A DNA stretch of 6,321 nt, taken from the IMG/VR virus record IMGVR_UViG_2681813201_000017; one strand, written 5' to 3'. The notes under the pieces were generated by a model, which saw only the letters and a program-made list of their open reading frames with translations, was not told the DNA's origin and searched no databases. The position numbers and the translations under genes are program-made. Positions 1 through 6,321 of the stretch are shown here, in pieces. Position 1 is the first letter of the stretch, and each line of letters opens with the position of its first letter. This stretch comes from a virus (taxonomy: Duplodnaviria > Heunggongvirae > Uroviricota > Caudoviricetes).

Positions 1-50
1 GCGCCGGGAATGGCGCGGTCTGCAGAAAATGAGGCAGGAAAACGCATGCA

Positions 51-83
51 AAGCCATGCACCTTATCGATGCATGGCTTTTTT
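51..83. terminator. Rho-independent terminator-like hairpin, probably bidirectional, stronger on the + strand
   Basis: Perfect 10-bp stem (51-60 aagccatgca / 70-79 tgcatggctt) with 9-nt loop, followed on + strand by a T-run 78-83. On the - strand the stem is followed by tttgcatgcgtttt, a weaker U-tract. Lies just downstream of the psu stop (114). Confidence 0.55.
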
Positions 84-113
84 CAGTAAAAACGGGCGGA
101 TTTTCGGGGAATT

Positions 114-686
114 TTACACAGACTGACGTGATGCCAGTTGCGCACTTTTACGCGAAAAAATCATGTTCTGCGCAGGGGTGAATTTTTCACGGCTGTCATC
201 CACAGAAGCCGCGTCAGGCCTGAATCCGATAGTCGTTAAAATGTCGCTATCCTGTGCGGAATAATTAATTTTTTCACCCTTCGCAAGCCAGGACAGGAGG
301 GCTTCACGCAGGGCATCTGTGGCACGCTGTATGGCACAGTTTCGGGCAATGGCCGTCAGCTCACTGTAGCCCATCAGCTCCGGTGCCAGTGCCGCCGCCA
401 GTGCTGTGCCGTGCTGCTGCATAAAATCATTCAGCCGGTCGCGGATGCTGATGTGCTGAACGGCTTCATGCGAACGAATATAACGACCGGCGGCCTGATT
501 CACCTGCCATTTTCTGACTTCGATAATATTGCGTAATTCGTCCAGGCGACTGACGTTTCTGCCTTCTCCTGACAGAAGCCGCAGGTATTCCTGTTCGGCC
601 GCTGCCAGCTCATTTTTGCGTTGCAGCCATGCTGCTTTGTTATTCTGACAGGTGTCAAAGGCCTGCTGTAAGGCTGTGCTTTCCAT
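114..686 (-). CDS. psu: Psu, polarity suppression protein (Rho antagonist / capsid decoration) of P4-type satellites, 190 aa
   Basis: ORF of exactly 190 aa as in P4 Psu; N-terminus MESTALQQAFDTCQNNKAAW matches my recollection of P4 Psu; last gene of the sid-delta-psu operon order; AGAGA-type RBS upstream of ATG at 686. Confidence 0.9.
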   Translation of the reverse strand: MESTALQQAFDTCQNNKAAWLQRKNELAAAEQEYLRLLSGEGRNVSRLDELRNIIEVRKWQVNQAAGRYIRSHEAVQHISIRDRLNDFMQQHGTALAAALAPELMGYSELTAIARNCAIQRATDALREALLSWLAKGEKINYSAQDSDILTTIGFRPDAASVDDSREKFTPAQNMIFSRKSAQLASRQSV

Positions 687-759
687 CGTTATCTCTTTCT
701 CATCATGCTGAAGAATAAAAATACGGTGTGCGGCGACGGCCGGGGTTAACCGGCAGCCT

Positions 760-1260
760 TCATTCCAGACGCAGCGAATATGATTGTGTTTTTAACCGTA
801 CTGGCGGCAGTTCCTGTTTTTCATGCAGGCGTTCTGCCAGTTCGTCCGGCGTGACCGGGCGGACAATGAAGCGGGTGATGGTCTGAAGCGTTTTAAACAC
901 CAGACCACAGCCCGGATCCGTGCACACATAAAAACGCTCGGTGACTTCCTGAGACAGACGCCGCGATGTTCTTGACAGTGCAAGGCCTTTACATCTCCGA
1001 CAACAATATCCGGTAACAAGCATTCTTTTCGGGCGTTTCATACTGCCGGAGGCTGACGTCAGTGAATCGCGGTATCTCTGTTTGCCTGAAATGTATTCCA
1101 TTCCTGAATCTTTACAGTCAGAGAAAAAGCTTTCACTCGCTTCAAATGTCGCAGAGCAATAAATATTCCGGCACTGTGCAATCATTATCTTGGTGCCATC
1201 GTCCATGAAATGTGCGCGACGGGTGTGAGCAACATGTCCACACGACGGGCAGTAAATCAT
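760..1260 (-). CDS. delta: Delta, late-gene transcriptional activator with two tandem Ogr-type zinc-finger domains, 166 aa
   Basis: Start chosen at ATG 1260 (MIYCPSCGH...) rather than the ORF-track start at 1317, because this ATG overlaps the sid stop (ATGA at 1257-1260) and gives the 166 aa expected for P4 Delta. Two Cys4 modules are visible (CPSCGH...CRNIYC and CRRC...CTDPGC), as in Ogr/Delta. Confidence 0.85.
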   Translation of the reverse strand: MIYCPSCGHVAHTRRAHFMDDGTKIMIAQCRNIYCSATFEASESFFSDCKDSGMEYISGKQRYRDSLTSASGSMKRPKRMLVTGYCCRRCKGLALSRTSRRLSQEVTERFYVCTDPGCGLVFKTLQTITRFIVRPVTPDELAERLHEKQELPPVRLKTQSYSLRLE

Positions 1261-1991
1261 GACAGCAGTCCTCTGGCCTTCAGCTCTGCTCCCTGCTGGT
1301 CTATTTTGTCCTGCCACACCTTGCGCTGTGCCGGTGTGCCTGCCACCTCATAATCCATGTGCGGAAGTGTTGCCGCTGACAGTCCGGTCAGCCGGAGAAC
1401 CGGCTCACCGGTGAGGCTGATTTGCATCTGTTTAATTTTCTGTTCCAGCGATGATTTCACCTGCTGCATGACAGCCTTTTCCGGTGCGACATAGCCCTGA
1501 TGGCCGGTGGTGTTGGCGAGCGGATTTTCCTGTACCAGGATGCTCAGATGCATTGCCCGGACAAGCGCCTCACAGGTTTCATTCAGGGCGTGTTCCAGCT
1601 CATGCTCTGCATACAGACTCAGAAGATGATGATGTGCCTTCCGGTAGGCGGTGGCCGTGCTGTCACACGCCCCTTTCAGGCGTTCACGTTCAAAATTCAG
1701 CACCACGGCCAGATTGTCATATTCCTGTACCAGCTCCCGGCGTGCCACGCGCTCAATGTGGCGCTGTTTCAGCTCGTCGCTCAGGACACCACCGGCTGCA
1801 CGAAAGGCCGTGCGCCAGTCGTCAGCATCGTTTCCGTCGGCCTGCGTCAGCGCATTTTTTTCCTGCTCTGCCCGTTCAATGGCCGTGACGGTCTCATCCA
1901 TCAGGCGGGCGTTCTCAAGATGAGCGACTCTGGCCTTTTCCAGTTGTGCCAGTGCGGGTTGCAGATATTCAGGGATGGTGTTGTCAGACAT
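1257..1991 (-). CDS. sid: Sid, external scaffold protein that redirects helper capsid assembly to small size, 244 aa
   Basis: Start chosen at ATG 1991 (MSDNTIPEYLQ...) with GAGGAG RBS 2001-2006 on the - strand, giving 244 aa as in P4 Sid; the ORF track extends 6 codons further upstream (2009) without an RBS. Stop overlaps delta start. Confidence 0.9.
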   Translation of the reverse strand: MSDNTIPEYLQPALAQLEKARVAHLENARLMDETVTAIERAEQEKNALTQADGNDADDWRTAFRAAGGVLSDELKQRHIERVARRELVQEYDNLAVVLNFERERLKGACDSTATAYRKAHHHLLSLYAEHELEHALNETCEALVRAMHLSILVQENPLANTTGHQGYVAPEKAVMQQVKSSLEQKIKQMQISLTGEPVLRLTGLSAATLPHMDYEVAGTPAQRKVWQDKIDQQGAELKARGLLS

Positions 1992-2025
1992 TTTCCGGCT
2001 CCTCGTCACTTCAGGTTAAGAAAAT

Positions 2026-2043
2026 TGTGACGTACACCGGACA
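2026..2043. promoter_or_regulatory. TGT-N12-ACA dyad, candidate Ogr/Delta activator site of a late promoter
   Basis: TGT at 2026-2028, 12-nt spacer, ACA at 2041-2043, centre about 2034.5. Lies 35-50 bp upstream of the sid ATG (1991) on the other strand. Orientation and assignment (sid promoter versus a divergent rightward late promoter) cannot be settled from sequence alone. Confidence 0.4.
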
Positions 2044-2063
2044 ACAACACGACGCATTGCAGA

Positions 2064-2081
2064 TGTGCCAGCCCTGACACA
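2064..2081. promoter_or_regulatory. Second TGT-N12-ACA dyad, candidate Delta/Ogr site for the sid promoter
   Basis: TGT 2064-2066, 12-nt spacer, ACA 2079-2081, centre about 2073.5. If the site is centred near -55 as in P2/P4 late promoters, the leftward transcript would start near 2019, leaving a leader of about 28 nt before the sid ATG at 1991. Confidence 0.45.
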
Positions 2082-2140
2082 GGAGACTCATCCTCAGACC
2101 GGCAAGCCAGGAAAAGGTCGCAGGAAAAACCGGCTTACTG

Positions 2141-2178
2141 TTTGTTTTTTTATATTTTACTGTTCACCTCTGTTCACC
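2141..2178 (+). repeat. AT-rich tract plus two direct TGTTCACC octamers (alpha-binding type I iteron sequence), ori-like
   Basis: tgtttgtttttttatattttac (2141-2160, AT-rich) followed by TGTTCACC at 2161-2168 and 2171-2178, a 10-bp register. The same octamer recurs in the cluster downstream of alpha. The array abuts the N-run, so further copies may be hidden. Confidence 0.5.
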
Positions 2179-2187
2179 TTAAGAAAA

Positions 2188-2262: not shown

Positions 2263-2317
2263 ACGATCCCATTATGCCGCGAGTCAATGGTAGCTCAGGC
2301 GGGGCAGCCTCCGGGCT

Positions 2318-2345
2318 GGCCGGTATTCTTCGAGGCCGGTATTCT
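2318..2345 (+). repeat. Tandem direct repeat GGCCGGTATTCT x2 (2318-2329 and 2334-2345) in the leader of the rightward operon
   Basis: Two perfect 12-nt copies 16 nt apart, separated by tcga. Position corresponds to the immunity region of P4-type elements, where short sequences pair with the CI antisense RNA; assignment is inference. Confidence 0.35.
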
Positions 2346-2358
2346 CACCCCCGTCTGG

Positions 2359-2400
2359 GCTATCGCCATCGAGCGTGAGAACTCCGGCGATAGCAGTTAT
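2359..2400 (+). promoter_or_regulatory. Hairpin (9-bp stem, 18-nt loop) followed by a U-rich stretch; candidate attenuator or terminator upstream of the first rightward ORF
   Basis: gctatcgcc (2359-2367) pairs with ggcgatagc (2386-2394); followed by cagttatttgct. It sits immediately before the AAGGAGG RBS at 2411-2417. Confidence 0.3.
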
Positions 2401-2424
2401 TTGCTACTCGAAGGAGGCTGCCTT

Positions 2425-2622
2425 ATGGCTACAACCCTTACCCCCTCACACCCTGAATTTGTCTTTGTGTTTGCGGCTGTCCGTCGCGCAGACCGTCATC
2501 CCCGTATCTGTATGCTTCGCACCGTCGCCGGTGATGAACGCAGTGCCCGCCGTTCCCTTGTCCGTGACTATGTGCTCTCCCTTGCTGCCCGTCTGCCGGT
2601 GGTGGAGGTGTCCCGTGCGTAA
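2425..2622 (+). CDS. Small 65-aa protein, first ORF of the rightward (early/left-operon-like) transcription unit; occupies the position of kil in P4
   Basis: ATG 2425 preceded by strong RBS AAGGAGG (2411-2417, 7-nt spacing); stop TAA 2620-2622 overlaps the GTG start of the next ORF. Identity with P4 Kil is inferred from position only. Confidence 0.45.
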
Positions 2623-2902
2623 TAAAAAAGCCCCTCAGACCGTCTCAGCGCGTCATGACGCCCGTGAACACCTCAGCATTGAGGCTTACCATAAGCTCAA
2701 CCGCGCCAGCGCCGTATCCCAGTTTGTTGGGGGTGATTTGATTCACCGTGAACTCTCCGGCCTGCATCAGCTCTACATTCCGCATATTTTCAGCTACCTG
2801 AATGAAGATATTGATTTTGTGCTGAATGAACTGAAAGCCAAAGGCCTGTGCCGCGATTTTCTCGCCCAGCAGAAAGACCGGGGAGACAGGACGCATGTTT
2901 GA
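2615..2902 (+). CDS. 95-aa protein at the position of P4 Epsilon (helper prophage derepression); start at GTG
   Basis: GTG 2615 preceded by GGAGG (2604-2608, 6-nt spacing). The longer ORF-track version (from 2375) has an N-terminal part that overlaps the 65-aa ORF in another frame and lacks an RBS. Stop TGA 2900-2902 overlaps the ATG of the next ORF. Size and synteny fit Epsilon; I cannot verify the sequence. Confidence 0.5.
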
Positions 2903-3350
2903 TTTTCCCCAGCCCGGTGAGATTTACCGTTCTGCCGGTTTTCCCGATGTGGCCGTGGTCGGCATTCTGGAAGACGGTATTCCGTGGGAAATGCCGTACC
3001 GCTGCCCGGAAATTGTCTGGAACCCGTACCGCCGTAAATTCAGTATCCTTGTGCGTATCCTCGCTGACGGACGCACCACAGACATCCCGCTGGGGCGTTT
3101 TCTGCGGGAATTTACCTGTGACCGTCCTGACCTGTTTAAACGCAGCCCCGTAAACCGGCATGCGGTACTGAAAGAAATGGCCGGAGACCCGGAATTACAG
3201 AAATGGCGGGAAAAATATCTGGATATTTACCCGCAGGACACTGTTCCGGTCAGCCGGGCAGCACCGGTGGCGCGGGAATGGCGGGAAATTCCCCGCACGG
3301 AGCCTGACCCGGAAACCACCCCGGATAACAGTTACCGCAATTATCTGTAA
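2895..3350 (+). CDS. 151-aa hypothetical protein (size and position of P4 orf151), function unknown
   Basis: ATG 2895 with GGAG 2882-2885 upstream; start overlaps the stop of the preceding ORF (ATGTTTGA); uninterrupted 151 codons in a compactly packed operon. Confidence 0.7.
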   Translation: MFDFPQPGEIYRSAGFPDVAVVGILEDGIPWEMPYRCPEIVWNPYRRKFSILVRILADGRTTDIPLGRFLREFTCDRPDLFKRSPVNRHAVLKEMAGDPELQKWREKYLDIYPQDTVPVSRAAPVAREWREIPRTEPDPETTPDNSYRNYL

Positions 3351-3378
3351 TTAAAAAACGACCCCCGAAAAATTAAAT

Positions 3379-3404
3379 GTGCGTATTCGCGCAGGGATAC
3401 GCAC
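3379..3404. promoter_or_regulatory. Inverted repeat / hairpin in the intergenic region between the 151-aa and 106-aa ORFs
   Basis: gtgcgtat (3379-3386) pairs with atacgcac (3397-3404), 8-bp stem and 10-nt loop. There is no T-run on the + strand; on the - strand it is followed by atttaatttttcggggg, so as a terminator it is oriented against the operon. Confidence 0.35.
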
Positions 3405-3423
3405 GTCTTCAGGAGACGCAGAT

Positions 3424-3489
3424 ATGCCTTATCAGTTAATGCAACCGGCACGGAATGCAGTCATCTGTCACAGGGAGAAAAGCAAATGA
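3424..3489 (+). CDS. Candidate 21-codon upstream ORF / leader peptide ([21 protein letters not shown]) coupled to the 106-aa ORF
   Basis: ATG 3424 preceded by AGGAG (3411-3415, 8-nt spacing); stop TGA 3487-3489 overlaps the ATG 3486-3488 of the next ORF (ATGA). Confidence 0.25.
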
Positions 3490-3806
3490 AAACACCCTTA
3501 CCGCCCGTCTTACGCGCTGCCCTTTACCGTCGCGCTGTCGCCTGTGCCTGGCTGACCGTGTGCGAACGTCAGCACCGCTACCCGCATCTCACCCTTGAGT
3601 CACTGGAGGCGGCCATCGCCGCTGAGCTGGAAGGCTTTTATCTGCGCCAGCACGGTGAGGAAAAAGGGCGTCAGATAGCCTGTGCCCTGCTGGAAGATTT
3701 AATGGAATCCGGCCCCCTGAAGGCCGCGCCGTCGCTGTCCTTTCTCGGGCTGGTTGTGATGGATGAACTCTGTGCCCGTCACATAAAAGCGCCGGTACTG
3801 CACTGA
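3486..3806 (+). CDS. 106-aa hypothetical protein immediately upstream of alpha, function unknown
   Basis: ATG 3486 with GGGAGA upstream; ends 14 nt before the alpha start; same strand and compact operon arrangement. Confidence 0.65.
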
Positions 3807-3820
3807 AGGAGAACAACACC

Positions 3821-6154
3821 ATGAAAATGAACGTAACCGCCACCGTCAGCCATGCGCTCGGCCACTGGCCGCGTATTCTCCCGGCGCTGGGGATTCAGGT
3901 GCTGAAAAACCGTCATCAGCCCTGTCCGGTCTGTGGCGGGAGTGACCGCTTCCGTTTTGATGACAGGGAGGGGCGCGGCACCTGGTACTGCAATCAGTGT
4001 GGTGCCGGTGACGGCCTGAAACTGGTTGAAAAGGTGTTTGGTGTTTCCCCGTCCGACGCGGCCGCAAAGGTGGCTGCCGTGACCGGCAGCCTGCCCACGG
4101 CTGACCCGGCAGTGACGGCCGCCGCCGGCGCTGAAACAGACGCTGCCCGGAAGAACGCCGCCGCACTGGCACAAACCCTGATGGCAAAAACCCGTCCCGG
4201 AACCGGTAACGCCTACCTGACCCGCAAGGGCTTTCCCGGCCGGGAATGCCGGATGCTGACCGGCACACACAGAGCCGGTGGCGTGAGCTGGCGCGCCGGT
4301 GACCTTGTGGTGCCACTGTATGACGACAGCGGCGAACTGGTTAACCTTCAGTTAATCAGTGCTGACGGCCGTAAGCGCACCCTGAAAGGCGGACAGGTCA
4401 GGGGCACCTGTCACACCCTTGAAGGACAGAATCAGGCCGGAAAACGTCTGTGGATAGCGGAGGGATACGCGACCGCACTTACCGTACATCACCTGACCGG
4501 TGAAACGGTGATGGTGGCGCTTTCTTCCGTGAACCTCCTTTCTCTGGCCAGCCTTGCCCGGCAGAAGCATCCGGCCTGTCAGATTGTCCTTGCCGCAGAC
4601 CGTGACCTCAGCGGTGACGGCCAGAAAAAAGCCGCCGCAGCCGCAGATGCGTGTGAGGGCGTTGTTGCCCTGCCGCCGGTCTTCGGTGACTGGAATGATG
4701 CCTTCACGCAGTACGGCGGGGAGGCCACCCGTAAGGCCATTTATGATGCCATCCGGCCACCGGCTGAAAGCCCGTTCGATACCATGAGCGAAGCGGAGTT
4801 TTCCGCCATGAGTACCAGCGAAAAGGCCATGCGTATCTATGAGCATTACGGCGAGGCGCTCGCGGTCGATGCCAACGGCCAGCTTCTGTCCCGCTATGAA
4901 AATGGTGTCTGGAAGGTGCTGCCGCCACAGGACTTTGCCCGGGATGTGGCCGGGCTGTTTCAGCGTCTGCGCGCGCCGTTCTCCTCCGGGAAGGTGGCCT
5001 CCGTGGTGGACACCCTGAAGCTGATTATTCCGCAGCAGGAAGCCCCCTCCCGCCGCCTGATTGGCTTTCGTAACGGCGTGCTCGACACGCAGAACGGCAC
5101 GTTCCACCCGCACAGTCCGTCACACTGGATGCGCACCCTGTGCGATGTGGATTTCACCCCGCCGGTGGACGGTGAAACGCTGGAGACCCACGCCCCCGCG
5201 TTCTGGCGCTGGCTTGACCGTGCCGCCGGTGGCCGTGCGGAAAAACGCGACGTGATTCTGGCCGCACTGTTTATGGTGCTGGCAAACCGCTACGACTGGC
5301 AGCTCTTTCTGGAGGTGACCGGTCCCGGCGGCAGCGGCAAAAGTATCATGGCCGAAATAGCCACCCTGCTGGCCGGGGAGGATAACGCCACGTCGGCCAC
5401 CATCGAGACGCTGGAATCCCCGCGTGAACGTGCCGCGTTAACTGGCTTCTCACTGATACGCCTGCCGGACCAGGAAAAATGGAGCGGCGACGGAGCCGGA
5501 CTCAAGGCCATCACCGGCGGCGATGCGGTGTCCGTTGACCCGAAATACCGGGATGCGTACTCCACGCATATCCCGGCGGTGATTCTGGCCGTGAACAATA
5601 ACCCGATGCGCTTCACCGACCGCAGCGGCGGCGTGTCACGCCGGCGGGTGATTATTCACTTCCCGGAACAGATAGCCCCGCAGGAGCGCGACCCGCAGCT
5701 TAAGGACAAAATCACCCGCGAGCTGGCGGTCATCGTGCGTCACCTGATGCAGAAGTTCAGCGACCCGATGCTCGCCCGGTCACTGCTTCAGTCCCAGCAG
5801 AACTCAGACGAGGCACTGAACATCAAACGGGATGCCGACCCGACGTTTGATTTTATCGGCTATCTGGAAACCCTGCCGCAGACCAGCGGCATGTATATGG
5901 GGAACGCCAGTATCATCCCGCGTAATTACCGTAAATACCTCTATCACGCCTATCTGGCCTACATGGAGGCAAACGGCTACCGGAATGTACTCAGTCTGAA
6001 AATGTTCGGGCTGGGGCTGCCGGTGATGCTGAAGGAATACGGACTGAATTACGAGAAGCGCCATACCAAACAGGGGATACAGACCAACCTGACGCTGAAA
6101 GAGGAAAGCTACGGCGACTGGCTGCCAAAATGTGACGACCCTGCAACAGCCTGA
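3821..6154 (+). CDS. alpha: Alpha, bifunctional DNA primase-helicase and origin-binding replication protein of P4-type satellites, 777 aa
   Basis: 777-aa ORF with AAGGAG RBS (3806-3811). N-terminal zinc-ribbon CPVCGG...CNQCG (nt 3923-4000), primase motif EGYATA (nt 4460-4477), Walker A GPGGSGKS (nt 5321-5344). N-terminus MKMNVTATVSHALGHWPRILPALG matches my recollection of P4 Alpha. Confidence 0.95.
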   Translation: MKMNVTATVSHALGHWPRILPALGIQVLKNRHQPCPVCGGSDRFRFDDREGRGTWYCNQCGAGDGLKLVEKVFGVSPSDAAAKVAAVTGSLPTADPAVTAAAGAETDAARKNAAALAQTLMAKTRPGTGNAYLTRKGFPGRECRMLTGTHRAGGVSWRAGDLVVPLYDDSGELVNLQLISADGRKRTLKGGQVRGTCHTLEGQNQAGKRLWIAEGYATALTVHHLTGETVMVALSSVNLLSLASLARQKHPACQIVLAADRDLSGDGQKKAAAAADACEGVVALPPVFGDWNDAFTQYGGEATRKAIYDAIRPPAESPFDTMSEAEFSAMSTSEKAMRIYEHYGEALAVDANGQLLSRYENGVWKVLPPQDFARDVAGLFQRLRAPFSSGKVASVVDTLKLIIPQQEAPSRRLIGFRNGVLDTQNGTFHPHSPSHWMRTLCDVDFTPPVDGETLETHAPAFWRWLDRAAGGRAEKRDVILAALFMVLANRYDWQLFLEVTGPGGSGKSIMAEIATLLAGEDNATSATIETLESPRERAALTGFSLIRLPDQEKWSGDGAGLKAITGGDAVSVDPKYRDAYSTHIPAVILAVNNNPMRFTDRSGGVSRRRVIIHFPEQIAPQERDPQLKDKITRELAVIVRHLMQKFSDPMLARSLLQSQQNSDEALNIKRDADPTFDFIGYLETLPQTSGMYMGNASIIPRNYRKYLYHAYLAYMEANGYRNVLSLKMFGLGLPVMLKEYGLNYEKRHTKQGIQTNLTLKEESYGDWLPKCDDPATA

Positions 6155-6161
6155 CCCACCT

Positions 6162-6186
6162 GACCGGCATCTGCCGGTCTTTTTTT
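6162..6186 (+). terminator. Rho-independent terminator of the alpha operon
   Basis: GC-rich hairpin gaccggc-atct-gccggtc (6162-6179) immediately followed by tttttttat (6180-6188), 8 nt after the alpha stop codon (6152-6154). Confidence 0.8.
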
Positions 6187-6204
6187 ATCCCTGAATTCCC
6201 CGAA

Positions 6205-6296
6205 GGTGAACAATCCACTGTTCACCCTTCACCGTATATTCACCCGTTATCACACTGAAATTAAAAGAGAAAAACGAAAGGTGAACAGTGTGAACA
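6205..6296. repeat. Cluster of TGTTCACC-type iterons in both orientations downstream of alpha (crr-like cis replication region)
   Basis: GGTGAACA 6205-6212 (inverted), TGTTCACC 6219-6226, degenerate cCTTCACC 6226-6233 and TaTTCACC 6237-6244, GGTGAACA 6280-6287, tGTGAACA 6289-6296. The first two form an inverted pair GGTGAACA-atccac-TGTTCACC. An A8/T6 tract follows at 6304-6320. Confidence 0.6.
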
Positions 6297-6321
6297 ATCA
6301 AATCAAAAAAAACTTTTTTCT

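Follow-up and report, generated by a model that had tools for sequence, protein, structure and literature searches.

Two copies of the octamer TGTTCACC stand next to an AT-rich tract at positions 2141-2178 of a 6,321-nucleotide stretch of viral DNA (hereafter the window), shortly before a run of N. This arrangement raises the questions of whether it belongs to a replication origin, of which element, and which of its parts would be opened by the initiator. A reading made from the sequence only (hereafter the sequence-only reading) had described two perfect octamers in 10-bp register beside a 20-nt AT-rich tract, and the sequence at 2141-2178 agrees with this description. Our analysis assigns positions 2141-2187, with a probability of about 0.93, to the left (sid-proximal) end of a P4-type replication origin (ori1), of which they would hold two of the six iterons.

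Megablast searches against phage records matched the window to phage P4 (X51522/NC_001609) with 98.8% identity over 99% of its length, on the P4 minus strand. Window positions 1-2187 corresponded to P4 11573-9387 (98.6% identity), and positions 2270-6321 to P4 8521-4469. Two P4-like prophages of E. coli O145, L085 and L003, were 99.9% and 99.6% identical to the window, respectively. O145-type E. coli genomes carry two such near-identical P4-like prophages each, and a close relative of the window was present in about 1,000 of 5,426 complete E. coli genomes. On the left side, psu, delta and sid (1257-1991), all on the minus strand, are followed by the origin and the N-run; to the right of the N-run come the CI (C4) immunity RNA, epsilon, ORF151, ORF106 (cnr), alpha, the alpha terminator and crr. 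The site at issue is located between sid and the ORF88/cI/epsilon/alpha operon, which is the position of a P4-type ori1, with ORF88 itself lying under the N-run. The CI RNA (2283-2370, plus strand), the P4 immunity RNA, matched the Rfam C4 antisense RNA family (RF01695) over its full length, scoring 74.3 bits where the gathering threshold is 45. All the genes visible in the window were intact and 98.8-99.9% identical to those of functional P4 or of complete prophages. The window is a P4-like satellite whose replication module (ori1, cnr, alpha and crr) is apparently complete. As for the insertion sites of the relatives, L003 lies at tRNA-Sec, adjoining the LEE island, and carries a GapS4a gene in its variable region, a hotspot between int and psu that in L085 is occupied by a DEAD/DEAH helicase gene.

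Iteron 1 (2161-2168) and iteron 2 (2171-2178) are both perfect copies of TGTTCACC on the plus strand, with starts 10 bp apart. Since the alignment to P4 is colinear, the two octamers coincide exactly with features annotated in GenBank as 'ori type 1 repeat' (P4 9406-9413 and 9396-9403, respectively). The P4 rep_origin (9086..9809) encloses six such features (9310-9413), of which the window pair are the first two, so the octamers fall inside the aligned P4 ori and not elsewhere, as the sequence-only reading had allowed they might. Over the last 188 bases ahead of the N-run there is a single difference from P4 (G for T at window 2184, in the spacer that follows iteron 2).

On both strands of the window, we counted five exact copies of TGTTCACC where 0.20 were expected, and none of 200 dinucleotide shuffles reached five. 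The remaining three are located just 3' of the alpha gene, at 6205 (minus), 6219 (plus) and 6280 (minus). Octamers with one mismatch clustered only in this post-alpha region, at 6237 and 6289, the others being scattered singles at 271, 2663, 3808, 5005 and 5590. In the P4 genome (11,624 bp), all 11 exact octamers belong to ori (six) or crr (five), and in the 12-kb O145 locus of L085 all ten copies map either to the equivalent of ori or to the sequence immediately after the alpha gene. The comparison with shuffled sequences that had been proposed thus came out in favour of the sequence-only reading, and the octamer is not spread evenly over the element, its exact copies in P4 all being in ori or crr.

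Two of the six iterons of a P4-type ori1 are therefore visible in the window as perfect copies, and the remaining four positions are masked by N. The full six-iteron array is present in P4, L003 and L085, as in every close complete relative examined, with starts at window-equivalent positions 2161, 2171, 2214 (inverted), 2236, 2247 and 2257, the last four being those at which L085 carries octamers within the interval hidden in the window (2214 on the minus strand). The spacings between starts in P4 and its close relatives are 10, 43, 22, 11 and 10 bp, all of them near multiples of the helical repeat. Iterons 3 and 4 (L085 7214-7243, masked in the window) form an 8-bp inverted repeat, GGTGAACA ... 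TGTTCACC, which a terminator scan flagged as a hairpin; it is possible that it acts as a cruciform or as a paired alpha-binding site inside ori.

The cognate initiator of a P4-type ori1 is encoded in the window. Alpha is an intact ORF of 777 aa (3821-6154, plus strand) for a primase-helicase initiator that ends in a winged-helix domain for origin binding. Its Pfam domains are Zn_Ribbon_Prim, Toprim_3, D5_N (of SF3-helicase type), DUF5906 and Pox_D5, with no Rep_3, and residues 671-770 match PDB 1KA8, the solved P4 origin-binding domain (E 1.1e-63). ORF106 (cnr; 3486-3806, plus strand), a 106-aa ORF that corresponds to P4 ORF106, matches Pfam DUF5375 (E 2.9e-63); Cnr is a negative regulator of P4 replication that acts via alpha by stabilising alpha-iteron complexes. 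The first 120-bp repeat of the partner site crr (P4 'crr 120bp direct repeat') occupies positions 6200-6319, and the window ends inside crr, with the second repeat beyond its end. Five type I repeats are located between 6205 and 6296: three exact copies of TGTTCACC at 6205-6212 (minus), 6219-6226 (plus) and 6280-6287 (minus), which are 'ori type 1 repeat' features in P4, and the one-mismatch variants TATTCACC at 6237-6244 (plus) and TGTTCACA at 6289-6296 (minus). The identification of the octamer as the repeat shared by P4 ori and crr was hence borne out at both places, the post-alpha cluster being the annotated crr. P4 ori1 requires crr in cis, and P4 replication is not known to need host DnaA, DnaB, DnaC or DnaG.

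Mapping and annotation of the P4 origin, with its TGTTCACC iterons and the partner site crr, date back decades and, judged from the alignment, the site is already known, being P4 ori1 itself in a near-identical relative. Because the window is a 98.8-99.9% copy of P4 and its relatives, nothing changes in what is known. Following the literature on P4, alpha, encoded 1.6 kb downstream, would bind the octamers of ori and crr by its C-terminal winged-helix domain, and bound alpha would open an adjoining AT-rich segment; it would then serve as helicase and lay primers, and replication would start without DnaA or DnaG. A passage of PMC4234260, citing Ziegelin and Lanka (1995) and Yeo et al. (2002), describes alpha as binding the origin repeats via the winged-helix domain and then unwinding and priming. 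Cnr (ORF106) would restrain initiation through alpha, and the origin would be bipartite, ori1 being functional only with crr, about 4.8 kb away. As far as the sequence lets us infer, the unwinding element would be the tract at 2141-2160, the spacer from 2179 onward, or both.

We also scanned one genome per species with the alpha protein. The 80 loci that this gave, in which alpha identity ranges from 57% to 100%, belong among others to Escherichia-like MAG contigs and to Enterobacter, Citrobacter, Klebsiella, Raoultella, Kluyvera, Pantoea, Erwinia, Pectobacterium, Serratia, Rahnella and Rosenbergiella. The ori layout was kept in 56 of these 80 alpha-homolog loci, 1.6-2.6 kb upstream of alpha. 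It consists of the AT tract, iteron 1, 2 bp, iteron 2, the 35-bp AT spacer and inverted iteron 3, followed after about 14 bp by three more iterons. The layout search was anchored on iterons 2 and 3, and the conservation of those two is therefore partly circular; iteron 1, the spacer and the tract did not serve as anchors. Over 55 distinct P4-like ori sequences, identity to the consensus was 0.84 for iteron 1 (63% A+T), 0.78 for the 35-bp spacer (83% A+T) and 0.68 for the equivalent of the 2141-2160 tract (84% A+T), with about 0.5 in the farther flanks (about 50% A+T). The family consensus of the iteron is T(G/A/C)TTCAC(C/T), and iteron-like words were about 30-fold denser at ori than elsewhere in the loci. 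That this layout extends from Escherichia to Serratia, Pectobacterium and Rosenbergiella is a modest addition to what is known. Among the loci scanned, four contigs (L005, L006, L007 and L040) filed under Ferruginibacter, Clostridiales and Ruminococcus MAGs have alpha 98-100% identical and are very likely mis-binned Escherichia satellite DNA; the MAG contigs L005 and L007, with alpha 100% identical, end before ori.

Two AT-rich segments adjoin the iteron pair. The tract TTTGTTTTTTTATATTTTAC (2141-2160; 18 of its 20 bases A or T, 90%), a candidate auxiliary unwinding or bending element, abuts the pair on the left. On the right, the first 9 bases of a 35-bp spacer between iterons 2 and 3, TTAAGAAAA (2179-2187), are visible by alignment to P4. 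In P4 this spacer is TTAATAAAAAAGATAAGTAATACAGTAAGTTAAAG, 35 bp with 83% A+T, and the gap between the annotated repeats (9360 to 9396) is exactly 35 bp; its location is L001 2230-2264 and L085 7179-7213 (window 2179 onward, mostly masked). We calculated nearest-neighbour duplex stability per 20-mer over the 7.2-kb essential region of P4 (mean of -28.3 kcal/mol, sd 2.9). The least stable 20-mer of that region is in the spacer (-18.3 kcal/mol), and the tract at 2141-2160 ranks second (-18.8 kcal/mol), so that iterons 1 and 2 are flanked by both least stable 20-mers, the AT-rich component of a P4-type ori1. The minimal ori1, reportedly described by Tocchetti et al. in 1999, is said to be a 123-bp segment made of six iterons and a 35-bp AT-rich region. 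The 35-bp gap between P4 repeats matches this region, and the earlier picture of iterons plus an unwinding element was right in kind; the tract that it named as that element comes second to the spacer in instability, however, and it may be the spacer, largely hidden under the N-run, that serves as the main unwinding element.

The alternative that comes closest to the preferred reading accepts the iteron pair as part of ori1 and places melting in the 35-bp spacer, the tract being kept for another reason, such as serving as part of the leader of the rightward late transcript or as an intrinsic bend. We give it a chance somewhat short of even. The spacer leads in instability (-18.3 against -18.8 kcal/mol) and is the better conserved in sequence (0.78 against 0.68 identity); it is situated within the array of iterons and the tract beyond its edge, and it is the segment whose length equals that of the AT-rich region counted in the reported minimal ori1. 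Moreover, the '5' untranslated region' annotated in X02534 begins at window 2133, which means that the tract would be transcribed. These points are tempered by a difference in stability of just 0.5 kcal/mol and by the A+T richness of the tract, which is kept in every clade examined despite changes in sequence, as would be the case for a compositional element. In addition, the homologous 650 bp of L085, examined for a promoter in the AT tract, showed no sigma-70-like promoter. X02534 further labels window 2148-2158, inside the tract, as 'put. ori consensus sequence'.

Conservation of the spacer extends beyond A+T content to its sequence, whose consensus, GATAAGTAATACAGTAAGTTAAAG, can still be discerned in loci with alpha only 57% identical. 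Its role may hence be more specific than easy melting, for instance in starting primers or in contacting a protein. An IHF site in the spacer was considered and rejected, given that, by eye, the P4 spacer does not fit WATCAANNNNTTR and a fit with one mismatch is found only in the Pectobacterium group.

The N-run (2188-2262) consists of 75 N that replace about 857 bp, and its flanks map to L001 2238 and 3104. In P4, the hidden interval (L001 2239-3096) measures 858 bp, and the O145 prophages have about 857 bp in its place. In the relatives it contains the rest of the spacer, inverted iteron 3, direct iterons 4-6, three 10-bp type 2 repeats and ORF88, by homology a vis-like HTH gene, and it also spans the promoter/leader region upstream of the CI RNA. 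The statement that the array runs straight into the N-run was correct in that the N-run cuts the array, but 9 bases (2179-2187) intervene between iteron 2 and the first N. The spacing of roughly 4 kb between ori and crr that had been read from the window did not hold. The initial iterons of ori and crr are 4,828 bp apart in P4 (9413 to 4585), and the window figure is too short because the N-run does not preserve length; distances measured across it are about 780 bp too short. The bases beside the N-run (2184 and 2263-2269) differ from both closest relatives, L003 and L085.

A second alternative regards the site as a decayed, inactive origin in a defective prophage, in which the N-run masks a real rearrangement and not an assembly gap, the iterons merely persisting or serving only as titration sites for alpha and Cnr. 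This is improbable. It could draw on the length of the N-run (75 against about 857 bp in the relatives) and on the slight differences from both close relatives in its flanking bases; yet all the visible genes are intact and nearly identical to those of functional P4 or complete prophages, the full six-iteron array is found in all close complete relatives examined, and twin P4-like prophages in O145-type genomes are a common source of short-read scaffold gaps. The N-run is likely a scaffold gap that arose from the two nearly identical P4-like prophages per genome.

That the octamers are a chance or unrelated direct repeat with no replication role, such as an operator for a transcription factor of sid or the late promoters, with which they share the intergenic region along with two nearby TGT-N12-ACA dyads, is so improbable as to be negligible, given the excess of five copies over 0.2 expected, their restriction to ori and crr in P4, their labelling as ori repeats in GenBank and the co-variation of their variants with the crr iterons described below. 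The dyads themselves (2026-2043 and 2064-2081) sit between sid and the origin, and we take TGT-N12-ACA to be the motif of the Ogr/Delta-activated late promoters (Psid and PLL). Its enrichment in the window was not significant (three copies against 1.2 expected, with 26 of 200 shuffles reaching three).

A P4-type ori1 thus being the preferred reading, the site can be set beside known origins. It shares with P4 ori1 (X51522 9310-9413) the octamer, the 10-bp register, the flanking AT tract and the placement, with sid on one side and the leftward operon running to alpha on the other, and it departs from it in one visible base (window 2184) and in having four of its six iterons masked by N. The type I octamers recur in P4 crr (X51522 4291-4590), where this alpha domain reads them as well; unlike ori1, crr is built of two direct repeats of 120 bp, each holding five iterons that differ in orientation, and it has no 35-bp AT spacer. 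Although crr is required in cis, it is not reported to be the site at which replication starts. With the plasmid and phage-plasmid iteron origins pSC101, R6K gamma, P1 oriR and F oriS, the site has in common helically phased direct repeats, an element-encoded initiator, an adjoining AT-rich region and a copy number limited by initiator-iteron complexes. Plasmid iterons measure 17-22 bp, however, and those of P4 measure 8 bp; in addition, the P4 initiator is itself helicase and primase, and the origin is bipartite, with its partner about 4.8 kb off. With 8-bp iterons and an alpha protein that lacks a Rep_3 domain, the P4 site works like an iteron origin yet falls outside the Rep_3/RepA class. 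The ori of SaPI/PICI satellites similarly combines a satellite-encoded helicase-type initiator with short iterons that flank an AT-rich region, but the SaPI ori is a single site directly downstream of rep, and its proteins and iteron sequences are not known to be related to those of P4.

Within the P4-like family, the share of iterons with a final T in place of C at ori was strongly correlated with that at the crr belonging to it (Spearman 0.90, n=29, a value that ignores shared ancestry). Such co-variation is what would be expected if one protein reads both sites, and it could help to predict the replication compatibility of co-resident satellites. We also compared residue 750 of alpha (window about 6068-6070), in the origin-binding domain, over loci L003-L084. 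Lys750 (motif HTKQG or RTKxG) pairs with C-ending iterons and Asn750 (RTNQG) with T-ending ones (Mann-Whitney p 1.4e-8, 29 against 21 loci, phylogeny being ignored), the association being the strongest among several associated columns. As a determinant of iteron specificity, residue 750 is only a lead.

A wider reading of the family, which we regard as rather unlikely, would have P4-type origins carry two conserved AT elements around iterons 1 and 2 together with an iteron-specificity switch. As to the first part, the tract at 2141-2160 may be a second unwinding or primer-start element outside the classical minimal ori. As to the second, the eighth base of the iteron (C or T) may shift jointly at ori and crr, tracking alpha residue 750. 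Such a switch, if true, would hint that incompatibility groups of co-resident P4-like satellites follow a simple code of recognition.

The post-alpha iteron cluster was shifted by 0.7-2 kb, or was not seen within 480 bp of the alpha stop, in L012, L032, L036, L059 and several loci with 57-61% alpha identity. Compared with ori, crr thus varies more in position.
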